Shown here one piece after another: positions 3,355 through 30,201 of a stretch of 64,000 nt of DNA. The notes under the pieces were generated by a model. It saw only the letters and a program-made list of their open reading frames with translations. It ran no database searches and was not told the DNA's origin. How positions within the stretch are numbered: the stretch's first letter is position 1; each line of letters opens with the position of its first letter. The position numbers and the translations under genes are program-made. Origin of the DNA: Candidatus Velesiimonas alkalicola. Lineage in GTDB: Bacteria; Omnitrophota; Gorgyraeia; Velesiimonadales; Velesiimonadaceae. Location: contig NDHX01000004.1 of the NCBI GenBank assembly GCA_013626165.1, forward strand, positions 565-64,564, in the 5' to 3' direction.

Positions 3355-4707
3355 TTAGAATACGAGCGTCACACCTCCAACTAGCTGGAAGGCATCTGTT
3401 GTTGACACGCGAGCACGAGGAACACGAAATTCAGCGGCATAAACATCTCTTACATAGTCATCTGGTATAAACCATGCACCAAGAACCCTGAATGTTACAT
3501 CCTCTGTGTATGCATATCGGACAATAAGATTCACTTCCTCTCCGATTCTCTTGTTTACACCTGGGGCTGTTTCATCGGCCTGGAAATGATAAAGGCTTGC
3601 ACCTAATGTAATATTCTCTATTGGTATTATAGAACCGCCAATTTTTGCAACCTTAAGGTTGCTGTTCCCGTAGATATAGTCCACGATGGAGCCCCATGTC
3701 TGGTCCTCAAAGAATGGGTTCCATGACCCTATTTTATGGTCCCTTGGATTATTATCACCGGAGAACCATGCAAGCGCTGCGCCAAGCTTTGGCGTGTACT
3801 CACCCTCAAATGTATATTCTGCGCCAACATTGGTTGCAAATGCTCTGCGGTCAAGGTCTCTCATACCAACTCTTTCTGTTGTACCAAACTGACGTGCATA
3901 CTCACCTTTCAGAAGCCATCCGTCTGCTGGTTTTGTACTTCCACGGATACCTGCAACTGCAATATTTTCTCTGAAAAGTGGTCTTTCCAACCTGTTGTGA
4001 ACATTAAGAAGGTATCCTTCTACTTCTGCATCATATTCGTCAAATTTATAACCAACATTTACTCCATAAAGGTCTGCATCTTTACTGTCTCTTTCCGGTC
4101 TTTCGGCTAACTTTGCAAGAATAAGGTCTATCGTCCACGGCTCATATAGCAATACAGCCGTTATGGCATCAAATGCTTTTCTTGATGATACATCATCATC
4201 CACATCCACGGTTGCTGCGTCCCGATCTATTCCCCCTACTCCTACTTCGCCTCTCGGATCTGGTATTCTGTGTAGAGCCGTCTCAATCCTGTTCTGACCA
4301 AGAACAAAGCCTTCTCCAAGGACAATATTCTGGCGACCCATTTTAAGCGTTAAAGGGGAATACAGCACCTCCTTTAGTGTTACATATGCAAGGTCAAGCT
4401 CAATATCTATTGTGCGTTCTTCTACTCCTCCCCAATCTCTCCTGTTTAAGAGTCTTATTACTCCTTCAACATTGTCCGTAAGGTCCACATAAGCCCCAAC
4501 CCTTGCTGTTGACTGATACCAATTTCTACCTTCGGTAGAAACATCAACACCCGCCAGTCTATCAACACCAGGATATGGCCTTTCATATCCCCACCTTGAT
4601 ATCCCATGCACTGAGATATCGCCAGAAACTCTTATATTCTGGACTGCTGCAAACAATGGCAAACCCATTAAAAGCAGTGCCATTGCAATAAAAAACATTT
4701 TTTTCAA
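3355..4707 (-). CDS. Outer-membrane beta-barrel protein (porin-like)
   Basis: N-terminal signal peptide MKKMFFIAMALLLMGLPLFA. Alternating amphipathic beta-strand pattern. C-terminal ...GGVTLVF with terminal Phe, typical of OMPs. Confidence 0.55.
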   Translation of the reverse strand: MKKMFFIAMALLLMGLPLFAAVQNIRVSGDISVHGISRWGYERPYPGVDRLAGVDVSTEGRNWYQSTARVGAYVDLTDNVEGVIRLLNRRDWGGVEERTIDIELDLAYVTLKEVLYSPLTLKMGRQNIVLGEGFVLGQNRIETALHRIPDPRGEVGVGGIDRDAATVDVDDDVSSRKAFDAITAVLLYEPWTIDLILAKLAERPERDSKDADLYGVNVGYKFDEYDAEVEGYLLNVHNRLERPLFRENIAVAGIRGSTKPADGWLLKGEYARQFGTTERVGMRDLDRRAFATNVGAEYTFEGEYTPKLGAALAWFSGDNNPRDHKIGSWNPFFEDQTWGSIVDYIYGNSNLKVAKIGGSIIPIENITLGASLYHFQADETAPGVNKRIGEEVNLIVRYAYTEDVTFRVLGAWFIPDDYVRDVYAAEFRVPRARVSTTDAFQLVGGVTLVF

Positions 4708-5011
4708 TTTTCCTCCTTATTTTTAAAACAAGGTGCAATCCGAAAAGATTTTTTTAAGTTAAGATATGTATTTCCCTTCTCGTTTCTCACCTTGAGAATT
4801 AACATGTGCTATATAGTAATCGTTGCATTTCCGACAACCTTTGACTGTTCAAGAAATCCCTCACCTCCTTCTTGTCATAGATTAAGGATGTCTGCAACGG
4901 TTAAGCCCGAAACACAAGATAGACACAGACTATCTGAATATCTCATTATACAACATATTTCAGTTTTGTCAAGTACTTTTTTTTAATTTTTTTTTACCCT
5001 GTTAAATTGAT

Positions 5012-5098
5012 ATCAGTGCACCAGGGCACCAGGGCACCAGTGCACCAAAGCATCAGTGCACAGGGCACCAGAGCACCAGGGCACCAGAGCACCAGATA
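5012..5098. repeat. Tandem octamer repeat (GCACCAGR)x~11, longest copy of a dispersed intergenic family
   Basis: Direct reading: gcaccagg gcaccagg gcaccagt gcaccaaa gcatcagt gcacaggg caccagag ... Intergenic. Followed by GC-rich palindromic sequence to ~5240. Confidence 0.8.
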
Positions 5099-5283
5099 TG
5101 ATATGAAAGAAGGGGAGATTTTCGCCCCCTTTTATAAAGGTGGACCCTTCCCCTCCCCCCCCATTTATAAAGATGGCGGGGCGCCCATCCAAAGGATGGG
5201 TCGGGGGATTATGTTTTCCCCACCCAAAGGGCGCTTGCCTTAAACCCTTGATATCTTGACGCCTATTTTTTCCCTATTCCCTT

Positions 5284-6438
5284 CTATAAAGAAGCAAATT
5301 CTTTTATAAGACCTGTTCCTATTATTGACCTCTGTATCTGATTTGTGCCTTCGTATATCTGTGTAATCTTTGCATCCCTCATAAACTTTTCAACAGGGCA
5401 GTCCCTCATATACCCATAACCACCAAATATCTGAACTGCATCTGTTGTAACCTTCATTGCTGTATCTGAGGCAAAAAGTTTTGCCATTGCAGACTCTTTG
5501 CTTACCCTGGTATTTCCCGAATCAACCATTCTTGCCACTGAATAAACAAGAGCTCTTGCTGCTTCAACCTGTGTTGCCATATCTGCAAGCATAAACTGTA
5601 TGCCCTGAAATGATATTATTGGTTTTCCAAACTGAACCCTTTTTCTTGCATATTCAACCGCAAGGTCAAGTGCCCCTTGTGCAATACCAACAGATTGTGA
5701 TGCAACACCCGGGCGTGATATATCAAGAGTTTTCATTGCAACAACAAAACCAAGCCCCTCTTTTCCAAGAATATTTTCTTTTGGAACCTCGCAGTCAGTA
5801 AAAACAAGTTCTTTTGTTGCAGAAGCCCTTATACCTAACTTTTTTTCCTTTTTACCAAATGTAAATCCCGGTGTTCCTTTTTCAACTATAAATACACTTG
5901 CACCTCTTGCTCCTTTGTTTTTATCCGTCATTGCAATTATTATATAGGTTTCTGCTTCCCCACCGTTTGTAATCCACTGTTTTGTTCCGTTTAATATATA
6001 ATAATCCCCCTGGTTTTTTGCGGTTGTTTGAATACCTGATATATCAGAACCTGCGCTTGCCTCTGTTAGTCCGAATGCAGCTATTTTTTTACCCGATGCA
6101 AGGTCTGGAAGATACTTTTGTTTTTGAACATCATTCCCGTAAAGTATTATAGGATATGTTCCCAACGCACTTGCTGCATAACATACTGCAATACCCCCGC
6201 ATGCACAGGAAAGCTCTTCTGTGACAAGACACAGATCCAGAACCCCTCCGCCTGTTCCCCCATATTTTTCCTCTATATACACACCAAATAAGTCGCTCTC
6301 TGAAAGAACCTTCATTATCTGCCAGGGAAATTCCTCTGTTTCATCATAGTATGCAGAAACAGGCTGTATCTTTTCCTTTGCAATCTTTCTTGCAAGTTCT
6401 TTTGCCATTATCTGTTGTTCACTTAAAAAGTAGTCCAT
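5284..6438 (-). CDS. Acyl-CoA dehydrogenase (short-chain/butyryl-CoA type)
   Basis: Full-length ACAD architecture. YGGTG..., the catalytic region and IYEGTNQIQR near the C-terminus. Confidence 0.9.
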   Translation of the reverse strand: MDYFLSEQQIMAKELARKIAKEKIQPVSAYYDETEEFPWQIMKVLSESDLFGVYIEEKYGGTGGGVLDLCLVTEELSCACGGIAVCYAASALGTYPIILYGNDVQKQKYLPDLASGKKIAAFGLTEASAGSDISGIQTTAKNQGDYYILNGTKQWITNGGEAETYIIIAMTDKNKGARGASVFIVEKGTPGFTFGKKEKKLGIRASATKELVFTDCEVPKENILGKEGLGFVVAMKTLDISRPGVASQSVGIAQGALDLAVEYARKRVQFGKPIISFQGIQFMLADMATQVEAARALVYSVARMVDSGNTRVSKESAMAKLFASDTAMKVTTDAVQIFGGYGYMRDCPVEKFMRDAKITQIYEGTNQIQRSIIGTGLIKEFASL

Positions 6439-21977: not shown

Positions 21978-23408
21978 ATGAAACCTGAATTTAGAACAAT
22001 AAAACAGATAAAAAATGACAAAGAAAAATCTTGCGTTTTAATTAAAAAAATGTCAGAAATTATAAAACAGAATGACATAAATATAGGGGCATATGTTCAT
22101 TTAAGTTTAGAATCTGCGCTTCTGTGTGCAAGGGTCGCTCCGAAAGATAAAACTCTATCCGGTATACCTGTTGCGATAAAAGATAATATATGTGAACAGG
22201 GCATTCCCACCTGTTGTGCATCAAAAATACTTGAAGGTTTTAAGCCTCCCTATAATGCGACTGTTATAAAGAAGTTAAAAGAAGCGGGTGCAATTCCGTT
22301 TGGGAAAACCAATATGGATGAGTTTGCGTTCGGCTCATCTACAGAAACCTCTTTTTATAAAATTACAAAAAATCCCTGGGATAAAACAAGGGTTCCCGGT
22401 GGTTCATCCGGTGGGTCTGCTGCTGCTGTTGCATCGGGAGAGGCAGTCTGTGCACTCGGTTCAGATACAGGAGGTTCTATCAGGCAGCCTGCATCATTTT
22501 GCGGTGTAGTTGGATTGAAGCCCACATATGGAAGGGTATCAAGATACGGACTTATTGCATTTGCATCTGGGCTTGACCAGATTGGGCCCATAACAAGAAC
22601 TGTTGAGGACTCTGCAATGCTCCTTCAGACAATTGCAGGGTACGATCCAAAAGATTCTACAAGTGTAGACATTCCGGTTCCGGATTATTCAAAGAGCTTA
22701 ATACAAAGCGTAAAAGGCTTAAAAATAGGTGTGCCCGAAGAATGTTTTGCTCAAGGACTTGATAAAGAAATTGAAGATTCTGTTAAAGAAGCAATAAACC
22801 TTTTACAAAAACTTGGTGGTAAAATTATCAAGATACAACTTCCGCATATGGAATATTCAGTTGCAACATATTGTATCATTGCAACTGCTGAAGCAAGTTC
22901 AAACCTTGCCCGATTTGATGCGGTAAGATATGGCTACAGGGCAGAAGAACCCGAGGGCTTAGGCGCCATTGAGATGGTTTCAAAAAGTAGAAGCATCGGT
23001 TTCGGCAGTGAGACAAAAAGAAGAATACTTCTGGGAACATATGTTCTTTCAAGCGGATATTATGAAGCATATTATATTAAGGCTCAGAAGGTAAGAACAC
23101 TTATAAAGGAGGATTTTGAAGATGCATTTAAGGTATGCGATTGTATAATTATGCCTACCTCTCCCACACCTGCATTTAAAATAGGAGAGAAAATAAAGGA
23201 CCCTCTTTCAATGTATCTTTCTGATATATTTACTATCTCAATAAATTTGGCGGGCCTTCCTGCGATCTCTGTTCCTTGTGGATTTACTTCTTCAGGACTT
23301 CCCATTGGTATGCAGATCATAGGCAGGGCATTTGATGAGGAGATGTTGTTTAAGATAGGCTTTGCATACCAGTCTAATACCAGGTGGCATACCATGAAAC
23401 CGGAATAA
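21978..23408 (+). CDS. gatA: Glu-tRNA(Gln) amidotransferase subunit A (amidase)
   Basis: Amidase signature [13 protein letters not shown]; KDNI..; [12 protein letters not shown]. The true start may be the internal MSEII. Confidence 0.9.
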
Positions 23409-23609
23409 AAAACAATTAACTGGTAATAGATACAAAATAAAGGGATGATGTGTTAGTTAAAAAATAAGAGTGGACTGTTTTTGCAGGTATAAAATCATTA
23501 CCCTGTTCTGAAAATTCAATTGTAGGGCAAATATGACGCTCTTTTTTCCGTTATTCCCACCCCCCACCCTTTAAGAAATTTTTTCGGCAAGGGTCTTTCA
23601 AAAATTTTT

Positions 23610-23638
23610 CTTGACTTTTCTTTCTTATTTCTGTATAA
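23610..23638 (+). promoter_or_regulatory. Consensus sigma70-type promoter driving the R-M island
   Basis: TTGACT – 17 nt – TATAAT, a perfect -35/-10 with ideal spacing, ~55 nt upstream of the HTH gene start. Confidence 0.5.
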
Positions 23639-23691
23639 TAATTAAGACAAAAGAGGATAGAAATGGATTTTAACATACAATTTTTATAAAT

Positions 23692-23895
23692 ATGAAAAAG
23701 AACAAAGCACCTGAAATATTGACTACTAAACAACTGGCTGAATATCTACAAATGGATAAAGCAACTGTCTATCGCCTCGCAAGAAAAAGAAAAATCCCTG
23801 CCATCAAAATCTTGGGTCAGTGGCGGTTTAAAAAAGATGTAATTGATAATTGGCTTGCTGAAGGAAGTTTAAAAAATTTTGATAAAATGGAGTGA
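23692..23895 (+). CDS. Excisionase/MerR-type helix-turn-helix DNA-binding protein
   Basis: 67 aa. LTTKQLAEYLQMDKATVYRLARKRKIPAIKILGQWRF is the HTH_17 / excisionase-family signature. Its stop overlaps the mod start. Confidence 0.7.
   Translation: MKKNKAPEILTTKQLAEYLQMDKATVYRLARKRKIPAIKILGQWRFKKDVIDNWLAEGSLKNFDKME
23698..23823. repeat. Left copy of a ~125-bp inverted repeat (5' part of the HTH gene)
   Basis: Near-identical, apart from a few mismatches, to the reverse complement of 29100–29225. Confidence 0.85.
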
Positions 23896-25822
23896 AAAGA
23901 TGAGTGAAAAAATTAATAAGTCGGTGAAGATAGATATTAAGGAAGGATTAAATAAAATTTATCCTGAAGTATTTGAGGATGGTAAAGTTAATTTTGAGAA
24001 GTTGAAGACATTGTTAAGTGGCGAAATCATTGAAAAGGAAGATGATAGGTTTTATTTTAACTGGGCTGGGAAAAGCAATTTATTTAAACTTATCCAAGCA
24101 CCTGCTTATGGAACTTTAAAACCAGATAAAGAGAAGTCAGTTGATTTTGATAGGACAGAAAATGTTGTAATTGTTGGTGAAAATTTAGAGACACTTAAAC
24201 TTTTGCTTAAACCATATTTTGGTAAAGTCAAGATGATTTATATTGACCCGCCTTATAACACAGGTAAAGATTTTATTTATCGTGATAATTTTAAGGAACC
24301 ATTAAAAGACTACTTAGAAAAAACAGGACAGATTGACAGTGAAGGGCAAAAACTCACTACGAATACAGAAGCAAGTGGTAGATACCATTCTGACTGGCTC
24401 AATTTTATCTATCCGAGATTATTTTTAGCAAGAAGTTTATTAAGAGATGATGGAGTTATTTTTATCTCAATTGATGACCACGAGGTTCACAACTTACGAA
24501 AAATTATTGATGAGATTTTTGGGGAGGAGAATGTAGAAATGATGATTTGGTATAAAATTCCTGAAACAGGAACAGCAGGGCAAGGGAAAATGAAAATGAC
24601 AACACGATTTAGAGTGGACAATGAATATATTTTAGTGGGATATAAAAATATAAATAAGATTCTATTTGGTAAGCCTTTAAGAATTAAGGAATTCAAAAAT
24701 GAATATGCTAATCCTGATAATGACCTTCGGGGGAATTGGATAAGTTGTGAATTATGTAAGTCTGAAGAAAAATCAAACCCTAAAGGTAAAAATTATTACA
24801 CTGTTACAACTCCAAAAGGGATAAATATAACGAGACAGTGGCATATAACAGAAGAAGAATTTAAACAATTGGATGGAGATAATAGAATATATTGGGGTGA
24901 CGGTACAATTATACCAAGATTGAAAAGATTTTTAAATGAACCACAGCCTGTAACTCCTTCTTCCTTAATTAAAAATATTTCCCAGACACAAGGTAATAGA
25001 GAATTGAAAAATTTATTCAACGGTAAATTAACATATGACAATCCCAAACCTCTTGAACTTATATCATGGTTGATTGAAATTTCTACTTCCTCAGATTCCC
25101 TCATCCTCGACTTCTTCGCCGGTTCAGGCACAACAGGACACGCTGTCTGGAACTTAAACAAAGAAGATGGAGGCAACAGAAAATTTATTCTTGTTCAACT
25201 TGATGAAGAAGTTTTAGATGAAGAAATTAAAAAACAGTTTCCAACTGTTGCAGATATCTGTATTGAAAGATTAAGGAGAGTATCAGAAAGGTATAAGAAA
25301 GAGAACACCCCGTCCCTGCGGGACACCCCTCTGAAAGAGGGGAATTCCCCTTCTATGAAGGGGTGGCAGGCGAAGCCTGACGGGGTAGTGTTTGGGTTCA
25401 AGGTCTTCAAACTTGATAAATCAAACTTCAATCTTAAAGATGAATTTGAATTTGACCCAAGTGAAAATAAAGAAGAGTTAAAAAAGAGATATTTAGAGTG
25501 GCTTGGTATGTTTGTTGAACAACCATTAGTTCCTAACTGGCAAAAGATTGATGTTATTTATGAAGTAATGCTGAAAGAAGGATTAAATCTAAACTCTAAA
25601 ATTGAAAAGATAAAGATTAAAAACGACGAATTTTATTATGTTAAGGATGAAGAACAAAACTTAGATTTTTATATCTCTCTTAAAGACAAATTTACTCCTG
25701 AGACCATAGAAGAAATAAGAACTTCAAAATATAAAGGAAAAATGTTTGTCTTTATAGACAAAGCATTAACAGATAACAACAAAATAAATTTGAGTGCTTT
25801 TGTGAGATTAAAGGTGATATAA
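23879..25822 (+). CDS. mod: Type III R-M system methyltransferase (Mod), N6-adenine
   Basis: DPPY motif IV; FAGSGTTG SAM-binding motif; ~640 aa; upstream of res. Carries a ~95-bp GC-rich palindromic in-frame segment (25305–25400). Confidence 0.85.
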   Translation: MIKWSEKMSEKINKSVKIDIKEGLNKIYPEVFEDGKVNFEKLKTLLSGEIIEKEDDRFYFNWAGKSNLFKLIQAPAYGTLKPDKEKSVDFDRTENVVIVGENLETLKLLLKPYFGKVKMIYIDPPYNTGKDFIYRDNFKEPLKDYLEKTGQIDSEGQKLTTNTEASGRYHSDWLNFIYPRLFLARSLLRDDGVIFISIDDHEVHNLRKIIDEIFGEENVEMMIWYKIPETGTAGQGKMKMTTRFRVDNEYILVGYKNINKILFGKPLRIKEFKNEYANPDNDLRGNWISCELCKSEEKSNPKGKNYYTVTTPKGINITRQWHITEEEFKQLDGDNRIYWGDGTIIPRLKRFLNEPQPVTPSSLIKNISQTQGNRELKNLFNGKLTYDNPKPLELISWLIEISTSSDSLILDFFAGSGTTGHAVWNLNKEDGGNRKFILVQLDEEVLDEEIKKQFPTVADICIERLRRVSERYKKENTPSLRDTPLKEGNSPSMKGWQAKPDGVVFGFKVFKLDKSNFNLKDEFEFDPSENKEELKKRYLEWLGMFVEQPLVPNWQKIDVIYEVMLKEGLNLNSKIEKIKIKNDEFYYVKDEEQNLDFYISLKDKFTPETIEEIRTSKYKGKMFVFIDKALTDNNKINLSAFVRLKVI

Positions 25823-25842
25823 ACAATGGAGATGATGTAGAT

Positions 25843-26133
25843 ATGAAGAATTTAGAAGAATTAAAAAGAATTATTAACCTGCATAAAAGAGAACTTGAAG
25901 AAAAATATAATGTAAAAAATATAGCCATATTTGGTTCTTATGTGAGAAACGAACAAGGTGCAGAAAGTGATATAGATATACTGGTTGAATTTAAGAAACC
26001 AGTAGGTTTACTTTTCATCCATCTTGCAGATTATCTGGAAGAAATCTTAGGCATTAAAGTTGACCTGTTAACACCCGAGGCTATAAAACCAAATCGCCGA
26101 AGATATGTAATGGAGGAATTGATCTATGTCTAA
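25843..26133 (+). CDS. Nucleotidyltransferase (MNT-type antitoxin)
   Basis: IAIFGSYVRNEQGAESDIDILVEF is the minimal NTase GS..DxD motif. Confidence 0.85.
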   Translation: MKNLEELKRIINLHKRELEEKYNVKNIAIFGSYVRNEQGAESDIDILVEFKKPVGLLFIHLADYLEEILGIKVDLLTPEAIKPNRRRYVMEELIYV

Positions 26134-26473
26134 AAGGGACTGGAAACTTTTTCTTGAAGATGTTTTGGAATCAATGGGTTTAATAGAGGGATATGTGAAA
26201 GATATGAATTTTGATAATTTCAAAAGCGACAGAAAAACAATTGACGCGGTTATCAGAAACCTTGAGATAATAGGAGAAGCCTCAAAAAATATTCCGCAAA
26301 ATATGAGAGATGCTTACAAGGATATTGATTGGAAAGGCATTATTGGCTTAAGAAATAGAATATCTCATGAGTATTTTGGTATAGATTTTTCTGTTATATG
26401 GAACATTATTAAACTTGAACTTCCTGCATTTAAAGAAAAATTTCAAAGGATACAGAAAGAAATTGAGCCATAA
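26126..26473 (+). CDS. HEPN (DUF86-type) toxin
   Basis: GLRNRISHEY carries the Rx4HxY HEPN motif. An 8-bp overlap with the upstream MNT gene gives a classic HEPN/MNT pair. Confidence 0.8.
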   Translation: MSKRDWKLFLEDVLESMGLIEGYVKDMNFDNFKSDRKTIDAVIRNLEIIGEASKNIPQNMRDAYKDIDWKGIIGLRNRISHEYFGIDFSVIWNIIKLELPAFKEKFQRIQKEIEP

Positions 26474-26474
26474 A

Positions 26475-29063
26475 ATGTTAAAGTTAAAATTTGATTCAAA
26501 ATTAGATTTCCAGATTGATGCAATAAATTCTGTTGTTGATTTATTTAAAGGTCAGAGGGAGAAGTCATTTGTTTATACATTCCAGATTATTCCTAATTTA
26601 ATAGATATACCTTCAGAAAAAATCCTTGAAAATCTACAAGAGACTCAAAAGAAAAATGGACTTCCATTATCTAACGCAGACGATTTGAAAGAACCTTATA
26701 ATTTTACTGTTGAAATGGAGACGGGAACTGGAAAGACCTATGTATATCTAAGGACAATCTTAGAATTAAATCAGAAATACGGATGGACAAAGTTCATTAT
26801 TGTAGTTCCATCGGTTGCTATAAAAGAAGGAGTTTTAAAAACTTTGGATATTACGAAAGAACATTTTAAACAGTTGTGTGAGAATTTACCTTATACCTAT
26901 TTTTCTTATAAATCGGACAATCTCGTAATGGTTCGGATGTTTGGTCAAGATACCAACCTTCAGGTTATGGTTATTACAAGAGATGCCTTTAATAAGGATA
27001 TAAATATAATCCATAATATTCACGATAAAATGGGAGATAAACCAATTGAGATTATCAAAGAGACAAAACCCATCGTTATTCTTGACGAGCCTCAAAAGAT
27101 GGGCGGAGAAGCAACTTTGTGGGGTTTATCTGAGTTGAATCCACTTTTTGTATTACGCTACTCTGCAACCCACAGAGATATTTATAATCTTGTTTATAAA
27201 TTAACTCCTTATGATGCGTATAATTTCGGATTAGTTAAAAAAATAGAAGTCCTGTCTATTACAGAAGAAGGAGACCCAAGCAGTAAAAAAATTATTTTAG
27301 AAAGAATAGAATCAACATCAAGTGGCTTAAGAGCAAAAGTCAAAGTTTTTGCTAATACAAAAGACGGTATAAAGTTTAAGATGATAACGATTAAACACGG
27401 TGATGATCTATCAAATAAGACAGATAATTCCTATTATAATGGCTTTATCACAAGTGAAATAAACAAAGGTGCAGGGTATATCTCTTTTCCTAATGGTGTG
27501 AAAATTTACGAAGGAAAATCTTCAATAGATGAAGATGAGATAATTCGTTTTATGGTAAGGGAAACGGTAAGGGAGCATTTAGACAAAAAGAAACAATTAA
27601 ATCCCAAAGGGATTAAAGTGTTAAGTCTGTTTTTTCTAAATAGAGTTGATGATTATCTATTGGAAGATGGGATTGTCCGACGAATTTTTGAAGAAGAGTT
27701 TAACAAATTTATTGAGAATCAATATTCCCCTCTTGTAGAGGGGTGTCCCGAAGGGACGGGGTGTTTTGATGTAAAGAAGGTTCATAGTGGTTATTTTTCA
27801 AAGATGAAAAGGGATAAAAGTATTGAAGAAGATGAGTCAGCATACGATTTGATTATGAAGGATAAAGAGAGATTGCTTTCGTTGGGGGAACCGGTAGAGT
27901 TTATTTTTTCCCATTCTGCTTTGAGAGAGGGCTGGGATAATCCGAATGTATTTAATATTTGCACTCTTGCTTACTCTTCTTCAGAAATTAAAAAGAGACA
28001 GGAAATCGGGAGAGGTTTAAGATTACCAGTTGACCAGAATGGGGATAGAATTCAGGATAGAGATATAAACTTATTGACTGTGATTACAAATGAAAGTTAT
28101 AGGGAATATTTAGAAAGATTACAGATAGAATACCGAGAAGAAGCAGGCGTTGAAGCACCACCTGTTGAAGAAAGAAGGCAAAGGATAAAAATAAAGCGTA
28201 AGGATGAGGTAATTCAAGGAGATTTATTTAAAAATTTATGGAATAGAGTATCTCCGAAAGCAAAGTATATTGTAAATATAGATGGTGGTAAATTCACAGC
28301 GCAATGTATCAAGGATTTACAAAAAATTGAAATAAAAAAGCCAGAAATAAGCATTAAAAAAGTTAGAGTAGATAAAATAAGCTATGAAGACATTGAAGAG
28401 GAATTTATTAGAAAAGCATCGGAAGAAACGGAGATAACCAAAGTCCTTAATCTTATACCCTGCATTGAAAGAGAAACCAGTTTAACTAAAAATACAATAT
28501 TTAAGATATTAGAAGGTTGTAATAATCTTCATCTTTTATTTGTGAATCCTCAAAAATATAAAGATATGGTCATAGAAGTTATTAAAGAGTGTAAAAAACA
28601 ATCTGAAGTTGAGGATATTAAATATATCAATTTGGAAGAAAGTTATGATGTTGGTCTTTTAAGGGAGGAAGTGGCGAGTTATGGTAAATATGTATTAAAA
28701 GTACAAAAATCAATTTATGATGGGATAATTAAAGAATCAAATATAGAAGAAGAGTTTGCTAAGGCACTTAATAAAGACTCCCGGATAAAATTATTCATAA
28801 AACTGCCTGATTGGTATTCAATAGAAACGCCTGCAGGGAATTACACACCTGACTGGGCGATTGTAATAGAAAAAGTTCAGAATGGTGTAACTTCCGAAAA
28901 AATTTACTTTGTAGTTGAAACCAAAGGAACTAATAATATTTATGAATTGAAATCCGATGAAAAAATTAAGATAAGAAGTGCTAAAAAGAGGTTTGAACTT
29001 ATAAGAGACTCAAAATTTGTGGCACCTGTTAAGGATTTTGATAGTTTTGAGAAGGAGTGGTAA
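26475..29063 (+). CDS. res: Type III restriction enzyme Res subunit (SF2 helicase-nuclease)
   Basis: ETGTGKT Walker A; VILDEPQ motif II; GWDNPNVF motif VI. ~860 aa. Start taken at MLKLKF, directly after the HEPN stop. In-frame GC-rich palindrome at 27726–27765. Confidence 0.85.
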   Translation: MLKLKFDSKLDFQIDAINSVVDLFKGQREKSFVYTFQIIPNLIDIPSEKILENLQETQKKNGLPLSNADDLKEPYNFTVEMETGTGKTYVYLRTILELNQKYGWTKFIIVVPSVAIKEGVLKTLDITKEHFKQLCENLPYTYFSYKSDNLVMVRMFGQDTNLQVMVITRDAFNKDINIIHNIHDKMGDKPIEIIKETKPIVILDEPQKMGGEATLWGLSELNPLFVLRYSATHRDIYNLVYKLTPYDAYNFGLVKKIEVLSITEEGDPSSKKIILERIESTSSGLRAKVKVFANTKDGIKFKMITIKHGDDLSNKTDNSYYNGFITSEINKGAGYISFPNGVKIYEGKSSIDEDEIIRFMVRETVREHLDKKKQLNPKGIKVLSLFFLNRVDDYLLEDGIVRRIFEEEFNKFIENQYSPLVEGCPEGTGCFDVKKVHSGYFSKMKRDKSIEEDESAYDLIMKDKERLLSLGEPVEFIFSHSALREGWDNPNVFNICTLAYSSSEIKKRQEIGRGLRLPVDQNGDRIQDRDINLLTVITNESYREYLERLQIEYREEAGVEAPPVEERRQRIKIKRKDEVIQGDLFKNLWNRVSPKAKYIVNIDGGKFTAQCIKDLQKIEIKKPEISIKKVRVDKISYEDIEEEFIRKASEETEITKVLNLIPCIERETSLTKNTIFKILEGCNNLHLLFVNPQKYKDMVIEVIKECKKQSEVEDIKYINLEESYDVGLLREEVASYGKYVLKVQKSIYDGIIKESNIEEEFAKALNKDSRIKLFIKLPDWYSIETPAGNYTPDWAIVIEKVQNGVTSEKIYFVVETKGTNNIYELKSDEKIKIRSAKKRFELIRDSKFVAPVKDFDSFEKEW

Positions 29064-29099
29064 GAGAAACTTTAAATTACCTGATTGTTATAAAAACAG

Positions 29100-29225
29100 C
29101 CACTGACCCAAGATTTTGATGGCAGGGATTTTTCTTTTTCTTGCGAGGCGATAGACAGTTGCCTCATCCATTTGTAGATATTCAGCCATTTGTTTAGTAG
29201 TCAATATTTCAGATGCTTTGTTCTT
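29100..29225. repeat. Right (inverted, degenerate) copy of the HTH-gene 5' segment
   Basis: Reverse complement matches 23698–23823 apart from a few mismatches. Lacks the ATG and diverges after ...GQW, so it is a non-functional partial copy. Confidence 0.85.
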
Positions 29226-29241
29226 TTTTTTATTTGTTGTT

Positions 29242-30201
29242 TTATTTTTCCTTCACTGTTATATATGATTGAGCCAAAAGTTCCCCTATAAATTCTGAAA
29301 ACCTGTCTTGTATTTTTTCTTTTTCTAAAGTCATTCTTATTTTGTCCTGTGCTTCTTCAAATAATATGGCATAGCCCGGACGGTGATCTTCTACTTTAAA
29401 GATATAATAATTAGAATTGATCTTGATAGGATTTGATGTCTGTTCCTGTTTAAGCGAAAAAACAATGTCTTCTATTTCTTTCAGCATCTTTCCTTTTTCA
29501 ATCCATCCCACACTTCCGCCTTCTTTTGCAAACGCATCTTTTGAATATTTTTTTGCAACCTCTGAAAAATCCTCTCCCTGCCTTAAAAGGCTTGATACTT
29601 CTTCTGCTGTTTTATTGAAAGAGTCCTCTGTCTGATTTTCTTCTTTTCTCAGTGTAATTTTTCTTAAATAAACTTCTTCATTTTTTTTAAAAAATTCCGG
29701 ATGCTGGTCATAAAAGTCTTTTATCTCTTTGGGTGTAACAATGGCTTTACCCACAACTTCTTTATCAAATATTATTCTTATTGCAGTCTGTTCTTTTAGT
29801 CTTTTTTTAAACCTTTTTTTCGTCCATCCCTGTGCTTTAAGGTTTTTCTCAAACTCTTCTGTGCCCCCTGCTTCTGATTCAAACATTTTAATCTTACCTT
29901 CAATGTGCGCATCCTGAACCTTTATATTCTGTCTTTGAGCCTCCTGATACATCATCTTTTCTTGTATAAGTTGTCTTATCACATTTTGTCTTAACTCTGC
30001 GAGCTTTTTTTCTAATTCTTCGCCCTGCACTTCCGGTTCCTGCAGGAAAAAAGGCAAGAGAGCCTCCTGTATATCGGATTCCATTATAATATCACTGTTA
30101 ACGATAGCAATTATTGCATCAAAATTACCCCGCTCAGGTGCAGCCGCACAATTCAGGCCTGCGAGCAAGATTATTTCTATCAAGAAAAGTAATTTTTTCA
30201 C
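29242..30201 (-). CDS. SurA-like periplasmic chaperone / PpiC-type peptidyl-prolyl isomerase
   Basis: Signal peptide. SurA_N-like helical region. C-terminal parvulin domain (GGSVGWIEKGKMLKEIEDIVFSL...). Confidence 0.7.
   Translation of the reverse strand: MKKLLFLIEIILLAGLNCAAAPERGNFDAIIAIVNSDIIMESDIQEALLPFFLQEPEVQGEELEKKLAELRQNVIRQLIQEKMMYQEAQRQNIKVQDAHIEGKIKMFESEAGGTEEFEKNLKAQGWTKKRFKKRLKEQTAIRIIFDKEVVGKAIVTPKEIKDFYDQHPEFFKKNEEVYLRKITLRKEENQTEDSFNKTAEEVSSLLRQGEDFSEVAKKYSKDAFAKEGGSVGWIEKGKMLKEIEDIVFSLKQEQTSNPIKINSNYYIFKVEDHRPGYAILFEEAQDKIRMTLEKEKIQDRFSEFIGELLAQSYITVKEK

Follow-up and report, generated by a model that had tools for sequence, protein, structure and literature searches.

HepT/MntA as one of several cargoes between mod and res of a mobile type III restriction-modification operon in Candidatus Velesiimonas alkalicola

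Within the 64,000-nucleotide stretch of Candidatus Velesiimonas alkalicola DNA that was analysed here (the window; contig NDHX01000004.1, assembly GCA_013626165.1), a type III restriction-modification (RM) operon carries a predicted toxin-antitoxin (TA) pair of the HEPN/MNT type between its modification gene, mod, and its restriction gene, res. The five genes form a unit of ~5.5 kb on one strand (+), with almost no intergenic space; they and their promoter-like site are as follows, lengths being in amino acids (aa):

23611-23639, + strand: promoter-like site TTGACT-17-TATAAT, consensus score 11/12
23692-23895, + strand: HTH_17 gene, the first gene of the operon, 67 aa (Pfam HTH_17, 1e-16)
23879-25822, + strand: mod, 647 aa (PF01555, 2e-37; PADLOC MTase_III, 558 bits)
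25843-26133, + strand: MNT gene, encoding MntA, 96 aa (PF01909, 7e-19; PADLOC PDC-S09, 98.6 bits)
26126-26473, + strand: HEPN gene, encoding HepT, 115 aa (PF01934, 3e-30)
26475-29063, + strand: res, 862 aa (PF04851, PF19778; PADLOC REase_III, 757 bits)

A preliminary description of this DNA had placed an MNT/HEPN pair between mod and res, and the open reading frame (ORF) listing, Pfam and PADLOC bear out both its coordinates and its adjacency to the two RM genes. From the ORF listing and our reading of the sequence, the HTH gene overlaps mod by 17 nucleotides (nt) and the MNT gene overlaps the HEPN gene by 8 nt; the mod stop codon is followed by a 20-nt spacer, in which a GGAG stands 10 nt ahead of the MNT start codon (ATG). 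The HEPN stop codon (26471-26473) had also been described as abutting the res start at 26475, and this too holds: the gap is 1 nt, and the start at ATG 26475 is fixed by the N-terminus MLKLKFD, which is kept in all relatives, those with insert-free loci included. The TTG at 26415 was considered as an alternative res start and ruled out, as the Res N-terminus of the relatives corresponds to ATG 26475.

Both RM proteins show the features of type III enzymes. In Mod, IDPPYNTG (around residue 113) precedes FFAGSGTTG (around residue 425), i.e. the DPPY-before-FxGxG order of a type III Mod, an N6-adenine methyltransferase whose variable target-recognition region lies between these two motifs, and the PADLOC MTase_III alignment spans residues 13-642. 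Res combines the TGTGKT and DEPQ motifs of an SF2 helicase with a C-terminal PDW...ETKG of the PD-(D/E)xK nuclease type, as expected of a type III Res. Against PRK15483, an equivalog model for the type III endonuclease, it reaches 310 bits where the cut-off is 564; as this model is narrow, we take Res to be a type III enzyme of another subfamily. In type III systems, ATP-dependent cleavage needs two inversely oriented unmethylated sites, and Res is active only together with Mod. The small protein encoded first belongs to the HTH_17/excisionase family (TIGR01764, 47 bits, above its cut-off) and is presumed to be a regulator. Membership of a MADS system was considered for it and rejected: it reaches 64 bits against MADS1, under the cut-off of 80, and only 37.6 bits against PADLOC mad1, and none of the other MAD components is found among the five genes.

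The preliminary description had read a GSxxDxD-type motif in the MNT protein and Rx4HxY in the HEPN protein, and both are present in the sequence, the former as an exact GSX10DXD (G31-S32-x10-D43-I44-D45) and the latter as R76-N-R-I-S-H81-E-Y83 (RX4HXY). Together with membership of PF01909 (MNT) and of PF01934 or PF08780 (HEPN), these signatures mark a module as class I HepT/MntA (type VII); in such modules a tyrosine beside the HepT RNase site is oligo-AMPylated by MntA (PMC7641770). Across 24 HepT homologues R76 and N77 never vary, and at least 90% keep H81 and Y83. MntA matches PDB entry 1wot (9e-8) and, over its full length, PADLOC PDC-S09. For HepT there was no matching model in PADLOC v2, and a phmmer search of the PDB with the single sequence gave no match; a profile of its homologues matches the PDB HepT entries 5yep, 7aer and 6m6u. 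Its AlphaFold (AF2) model has a predicted local distance difference test (pLDDT) score of 90.4, and the top 23 Foldseek matches to this model in the PDB are all HepT chains, from S. oneidensis and A. flos-aquae, with a query TM-score (TMq) of 0.49-0.69 (0.57-0.69 for 22 of the 23) and probabilities that are mostly 0.99-1.00 and at lowest 0.92. Like S. oneidensis SO_3166/SO_3165 and the A. flos-aquae HEPN/MNT pair, the window pair has its PF01909 gene upstream of, and overlapping, its PF01934 gene, and it shares with them the exact motifs and the predicted HepT fold, although sequence identity to the solved proteins is ~20%. Unlike the stand-alone HepT/MntA operon, with two genes and its own promoter, the pair sits inside another operon, and its activity here is a prediction. 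By its motifs and its modelled fold, it is a predicted class I type VII HepT/MntA module, divergent but motif-complete.

Is a toxin module between mod and res an oddity? The preliminary description had thought so, unless homologous type III loci were found to carry such an insertion routinely. We fetched 80 metagenome loci and 80 loci from species-representative genomes (labelled L001 and so on), located mod and res by tblastn, listed the intervening genes and identified them by Pfam, PADLOC and BLAST clustering; 140 loci in all underwent inspection of the junction. Empty loci read GGTGATA-TAA-A-ATG across it, and the window junction with the cassette removed would be GGTGATATAAAATG. In occupied loci the cargo lies exactly between the mod stop codon and the res ATG, always on the operon strand, often using a Shine-Dalgarno sequence within the last codons of mod and ending 1-9 nt before the res ATG. 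Such cargo is present in 42 of the 65 metagenome loci with a readable junction and, within the close clade (Res at least 64% identical), in 42 of 60 (70%), the other 18 being empty; these percentages are approximate, as near-identical metagenome contigs (e.g. L007-9, L011/12, L022/23) are included. The occupants were:

YhcG/DUF1016 PD-(D/E)xK nuclease: 23 loci intact, 2 broken
MNT + HepT (PF01934): 6 loci
MNT + HEPN (PF05168): 2 loci
57-aa MNT-HepT deletion remnant: 3 loci
Unknown gene + ThsB-TIR + TIR cassette: 3 loci
DUF262-HNH (NsnA-like): 1 locus
PIN-like: 1 locus
Cargo without family match: 1 locus

The slot of the close clade holds at least eight kinds of cargo, and the claim that the arrangement is unusual falls: homologous type III loci regularly carry inserts at this same junction, eight of the 42 occupied close loci with MNT and HEPN genes. 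As such a pair recurs here in at least eight other related loci, representing at least three unrelated cassette lineages, its position in the window is not a matter of chance. Close relatives in the genome set have YhcG, a broken YhcG, the TIR cassette or nothing at the junction. Over both sets, the YhcG cargo is often broken, as in L046, L063, L104 and L105. Further out, among relatives with a Res 37-48% identical and the mod-res order, about 30 of 40 are empty, three more have a gap of 117-151 nt without an ORF, and seven hold other cargo, including Shedu SduA (full-length, 355 bits), PD-T7-4/DUF4145 HEPN, AbiU2-HEPN and RiboL-PSP-HEPN. PADLOC candidate models match several occupants of the slot, namely PDC-S09 (MNT), PDC-S02 (DUF1016/YhcG) and PDC-M50 (the TIR cassette). 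With its same orientation, its recurrence in independent loci and its varied content, this cargo has the hallmarks of embedded defence genes. Some occupants lack a Pfam match, at L065 2523-3389 (288 aa), L126 1074-1748 (224 aa) and L149 5495-6992 (177 + 324 aa), as does the first gene of the TIR cassette (L110 5904-6350 and L003 1511-1954; 140-148 aa, matched by PADLOC PDC-M50A only); these are candidate uncharacterised defence genes. In distant relatives (Res identity 37-42%; L156-L159, L167, L168, L171, L173, L175, L176 and L178) the order is reversed to res-mod, with ~0.9-1.2 kb between the two genes in L171 and L158.

The occupants of the slot turn over. In a neighbour-joining tree of Res the cargo types are interleaved: one YhcG locus, for instance, pairs with an empty locus, and one MNT-HepT locus has YhcG loci as its sisters. 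The remnant ORF of 54-57 aa (L015 4666-4839, L016 6823-6996, L070 852-1016) retains the first and last ~45 nt of the cassette type found in L018, L025 and L069; since only the cassette ends are kept, toxin and antitoxin must have been lost together by a clean internal deletion. The pair in the window has its nearest kin elsewhere: its HepT is 34-58% identical to other embedded HepTs, as against 69-83% to many other clusters, and all seven of the nearest clusters sampled (69-83%) are free-standing MNT-HepT pairs, whose surroundings are housekeeping genes, another TA, or a type I RM/Fic/AbiJ cluster. Nucleotide homology to these free-standing pairs (76-83%) starts at 25828-25842 and ends at 26445-26475. 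As it is limited to the two ORFs and their ribosome-binding site, and as the nearest kin are free-standing, the locus has captured a generic mobile TA pair, which is one of at least three independent MNT+HEPN captures at the mod-res junction. In L081, two MNT-HepT pairs stand in tandem (3706-4331 and 4700-5348), one of them being the closest relative (83%) of the window HepT.

This history brings into play the idea that the pair is a selfish hitch-hiker, a mobile addiction module in a permissive and well-expressed site, which persists for itself or stabilises the island and plays no part in phage defence. The free-standing relatives among housekeeping genes, a transfer that covered two ORFs only and the frequent turnover (deletion remnants, 18 of 60 close loci empty, YhcG often broken as well) all accord with it; moreover, as Res needs Mod, the RM operon has little addictive power by itself and could gain from carrying a TA. 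On the other hand, the slot holds validated anti-phage genes (Shedu, PD-T7-4) and effector nucleases rather than transposases or other genes typical of the mobilome; MNT+HEPN pairs of at least three independent lineages were taken up at precisely this position; and, in other DNA-modification systems, embedded genes have time and again turned out to be defences (bioRxiv 10.1101/2024.01.29.577857). We consider a purely selfish role possible, if somewhat unlikely.

The host operon is itself a traveller. Res has thousands of relatives, many of them 65-88% identical, in metagenome-assembled genomes (MAGs) named Omnitrophica, Atribacteria, Ignavibacteria and DPANN archaea, and proteins 78-88% identical occur in Atribacteria, WOR-3, Clostridia, Kryptoniota and DPANN archaea; a scan of viral contigs with Res found no relatives. 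The GC content of the island is 0.27-0.33, against 0.34-0.43 in the flanks, which consist of housekeeping genes, namely gatC and gatA upstream and, on the opposite strand downstream, mdh, apbE, mfd and the gene for a SurA-like rotamase. Searches for exact matches to the GatA and SurA-like proteins from these flanks gave none. The segment at 23.6-29.2 kb is a horizontally mobile type III RM operon, made up of promoter, HTH gene, mod, cargo slot and res. Two related assemblies break at the borders of the slot: L095 (714 nt, equivalent to window 25792-26505) consists of the cassette plus 31 nt each of mod and res, and the L181 contig stops at the mod stop codon (window 25823), which suggests that several variants with common flanks coexist in one community. 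In L181, the central Mod segment (4841-5445, against window 24532-25109) is non-alignable and the MAG flanks are 99.5% identical; judging from this alignment, the target-recognition domain of Mod has presumably been swapped, giving another methylation specificity in a near-identical strain.

Co-transcription of all five genes from one promoter, as the preliminary description had proposed, is probable and our best inference. In scans for consensus matches, the sole strong promoter-like site is the one at 23611-23639, upstream of the HTH gene; no + strand promoter-like site of at least 9/12 was found in 24888-26262, and no + strand terminator-like site from the promoter to 27161, so none before res. 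A homologous TTGAnT-17-TATAAT site precedes mod in L033, L037, L043 and L052, loci with a decayed HTH gene included, and in L063 the -35 half alone remains after a deletion that also took the 5' part of the HTH gene. Indeed, this gene is deleted, truncated or stop-interrupted in L022/L023 (~400-460), L037 (4230-4344), L043 (3846-4016), L052 (4000-4110) and L063 (4290-4455), most of which, L022/L023 among them, still have the promoter, and the HTH regulator is thus dispensable there. Free-standing relatives of the pair have 60-530 nt of upstream intergenic DNA, versus 20 nt for the embedded pair; a cassette with no promoter space of its own would be made from the operon transcript. Conserved promoter, tight spacing and this want of intergenic space together point to a single transcript.

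Another explanation is that the cargo is regulatory, with the RNase and its modifier tuning the operon, for instance by cutting back the polycistronic mRNA so that Res is kept back, in time or amount, with respect to Mod once in a new host. RM systems do require delayed restriction during establishment (PMC12707154), the cassette stands precisely at the mod-res boundary, and translation of Res seems to need termination-reinitiation after HepT. Yet relatives with an empty slot manage without a cassette, the other cargos (DNA nucleases, TIR, Shedu) are incapable of such a role, and nothing on the target specificity of HepT supports it; we find this explanation highly improbable.

HEPN genes linked to or embedded in RM operons, MNT-associated HEPN families included, were recognised in 2013, along with the PrrC paradigm (PMC3710099, PMC3632139). 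PrrC, which lies in a type Ic system (PMC3710099), resembles the window locus in being an HEPN-fold RNase whose gene is nested among RM genes, in EcoprrI, and it is thought to serve as a second line upon restriction failure (PMC3710099, PMC12707154). By analogy, and as has been proposed for RM-linked HEPN proteins (PMC3710099, PMC12707154), Mod and Res could physically restrain HepT, or MntA-HepT, and release it upon inactivation of the type III enzyme by a phage-borne anti-restriction protein; with the HepT stop codon 1 nt from the res start, synthesis of HepT and Res would be coupled. PrrC, however, has an N-terminal ABC-ATPase domain and lacks a separate antitoxin, the RM proteins being what silences it, whereas the window has a self-contained TA with an enzymatic antitoxin in a type III system: HepT, at 115 aa, consists of one HEPN domain and is paired with a cognate MNT, unlike PrrC or RloC, and Pfam finds no ABC-ATPase sensor domain in the pair. 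Moreover, Mod/Res backbones that are almost identical carry unrelated cargo in place of the cassette, whose closest homologues work without an RM partner. An antitoxin of its own, interchangeable cargo and RM-free homologues make a specific co-adaptation with Mod and Res unlikely, and we regard a PrrC-like guardian as quite improbable.

Closer in layout is the RptR-type I RMS-DarTG2 island of enteropathogenic E. coli, in which, as in the window, a small DNA-binding regulator comes first, there is one promoter, and a TA is embedded between RM genes (PMC12255303). The embedding site there was noted as a possible recombination hotspot (PMC12255303). That island differs in having a type I RM system, a DarTG module (DNA ADP-ribosylation) and a regulator, RptR, unrelated to HTH_17, and it was tested experimentally, whereas the window locus is type III with HepT/MntA. 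Nested defence genes have been published more broadly under the name of 'guilt-by-embedding' (bioRxiv 10.1101/2024.01.29.577857): same-oriented cargo lies between the core genes of DNA-modification defences, as in the window, and the cargo families of the loci inspected here match PADLOC HEC/PDC candidates, the PDCs being described as candidates from the embedding approach (PMC12988326). The nested pattern has been published for type I RM, BREX, DISARM and Hma, and a DUF1016 gene has been documented between the core genes of type I RM systems (PMC9881135); the hosts analysed in the embedding preprint did not include type III systems (bioRxiv 10.1101/2024.01.29.577857). The window locus is another case of defence genes nested in defence genes, and not an oddity. 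As far as we have read these papers on embedded defence genes, they describe neither a type III RM system as the host nor a widely transferred family in which one precise junction is so very often occupied.

What, then, might the pair do? We lean towards reading it as a captured, co-transcribed and self-contained layer of RNA-targeting defence or addiction, second to the RM system; a composite-defence or addiction role, both suggested in the preliminary description, is a reasonable reading by analogy. In this family, the short stretch that separates mod from res acts as a slot for extra same-strand defence-type genes, translationally coupled to their neighbours. To go by the characterised homologues, MntA would use ATP to oligo-AMPylate Tyr83 beside the HepT RNase site and so keep HepT silent. 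Should the supply of MntA, ATP or operon expression fail, perhaps because of shut-off by a phage, because restriction is overwhelmed or because the operon is lost, unmodified HepT would cleave cellular RNA and arrest growth. The outcome could be abortive infection and/or post-segregational stabilisation on top of a DNA-targeting first layer, and the pair would act independently, without physical control by Mod or Res. That the slot is shared with validated anti-phage genes (Shedu, PD-T7-4) argues for the defence role.

Several points weigh against this layered-defence reading, the redundancy behind the occupancy figures among them. Neither protein reaches its NCBIfam equivalog cut-off of 60 bits (NF047751 HepT, 46.7 bits; NF047752 MntA, 44.6 bits), and the nearest relatives of the pair work without any RM system. 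The deletion remnants show that loci can do without the cassette, and these points are just as compatible with a selfish hitch-hiker. A separate promoter may lie inside the 3' end of mod, where the reach of a consensus scan is limited. Anti-phage activity of HepT/MntA is suggested and not demonstrated in the literature (PMC13000451), and its trigger and de-AMPylation route are not established (PMC7641770).

With this locus, type III RM operons join the defence operons known to carry nested cargo. At 5.5 kb and five genes, the compact locus could serve as a test bed for whether the very abundant HepT/MntA modules protect against phage and for what sets them off. Across the family, the slot also offers, by the logic of guilt-by-embedding, candidate defence genes of uncultured bacteria and archaea, and it holds a warning for annotation, namely that mod and res genes 0.6-2 kb apart can still form one system.

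A bolder version would make the mod-res junction a dedicated coupled slot, an integrase-free cassette site in which effectors are swapped by recombination in the last 30 nt of mod and the first 25 nt of res, both near-invariant; MntA/HepT would be genuine anti-phage cargo that fires when restriction fails, and the unit would perhaps also be invertible via a 142-nt repeat. We consider this version, taken whole, unlikely. If it were true, inversion of the operon relative to its promoter would switch restriction, methylation and the TA pair on or off together. The repeat in question is inverted, 95% complementary, and brackets the operon:

23688-23829, no strand assigned: left arm, the first 46 codons of the HTH gene
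29094-29235, no strand assigned: right arm, an inverted shortened HTH copy

The right arm begins 31 nt beyond the end of res, or 34 nt when counted from its last sense codon, the latter spacing being common to the relatives, and in the window it consists of inverted HTH codons 1-46, without start codon or promoter. The same fragment of codons 1-46, at the same spacing, is found at L001 3968-4109, L002 4910-5041, L003 5639-5755, L102 3815-3946 and L118 1367-1510; in L118 the right arm is an intact ORF of 47 aa with a copy of the operon promoter in front, facing res, and in L102 it has a TTGACA-17-TATTAT site. No target-site duplication was seen outside the arms. The repeat may serve as a switch by which the operon is inverted, act as a convergent antisense promoter or mark the (old) termini of the mobile unit.

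Both mod and res contain, in frame, a 42-nt GC-rich double hairpin (ATTCCCCTCTTGTAGAGGGGTGTCCCGAAGGGACGGGGTGTT), with further copies in relatives:

25304-25345, minus orientation: double hairpin in mod, with a third hairpin reaching ~25365
27724-27765: double hairpin in res
L017 3013-3054 and L104 5714-5755: double hairpin in relatives

The two copies flanking the cassette might be imagined as marking a composite element that delivered the TA pair, and this idea was rejected: homology to free-standing pairs ends at the ORF boundaries, and the res copy of the hairpin is also present in L017, which holds a different cargo. Rfam at a permissive threshold found no RNA family across 23300-29400, so the hairpin and the repeats match no curated RNA. 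One copy lies outside RM genes, in an Atribacteria MAG. In the window, the insertion lengthens Mod by ~24 aa and Res by 8 aa relative to homologues, and in L017 the stem is preserved by compensatory changes (GTCCC/GGGAC to GCCCC/GGGGC); we take the element to resemble the palindromic elements, RPE- or PARCEL-like, that are tolerated in coding sequence.

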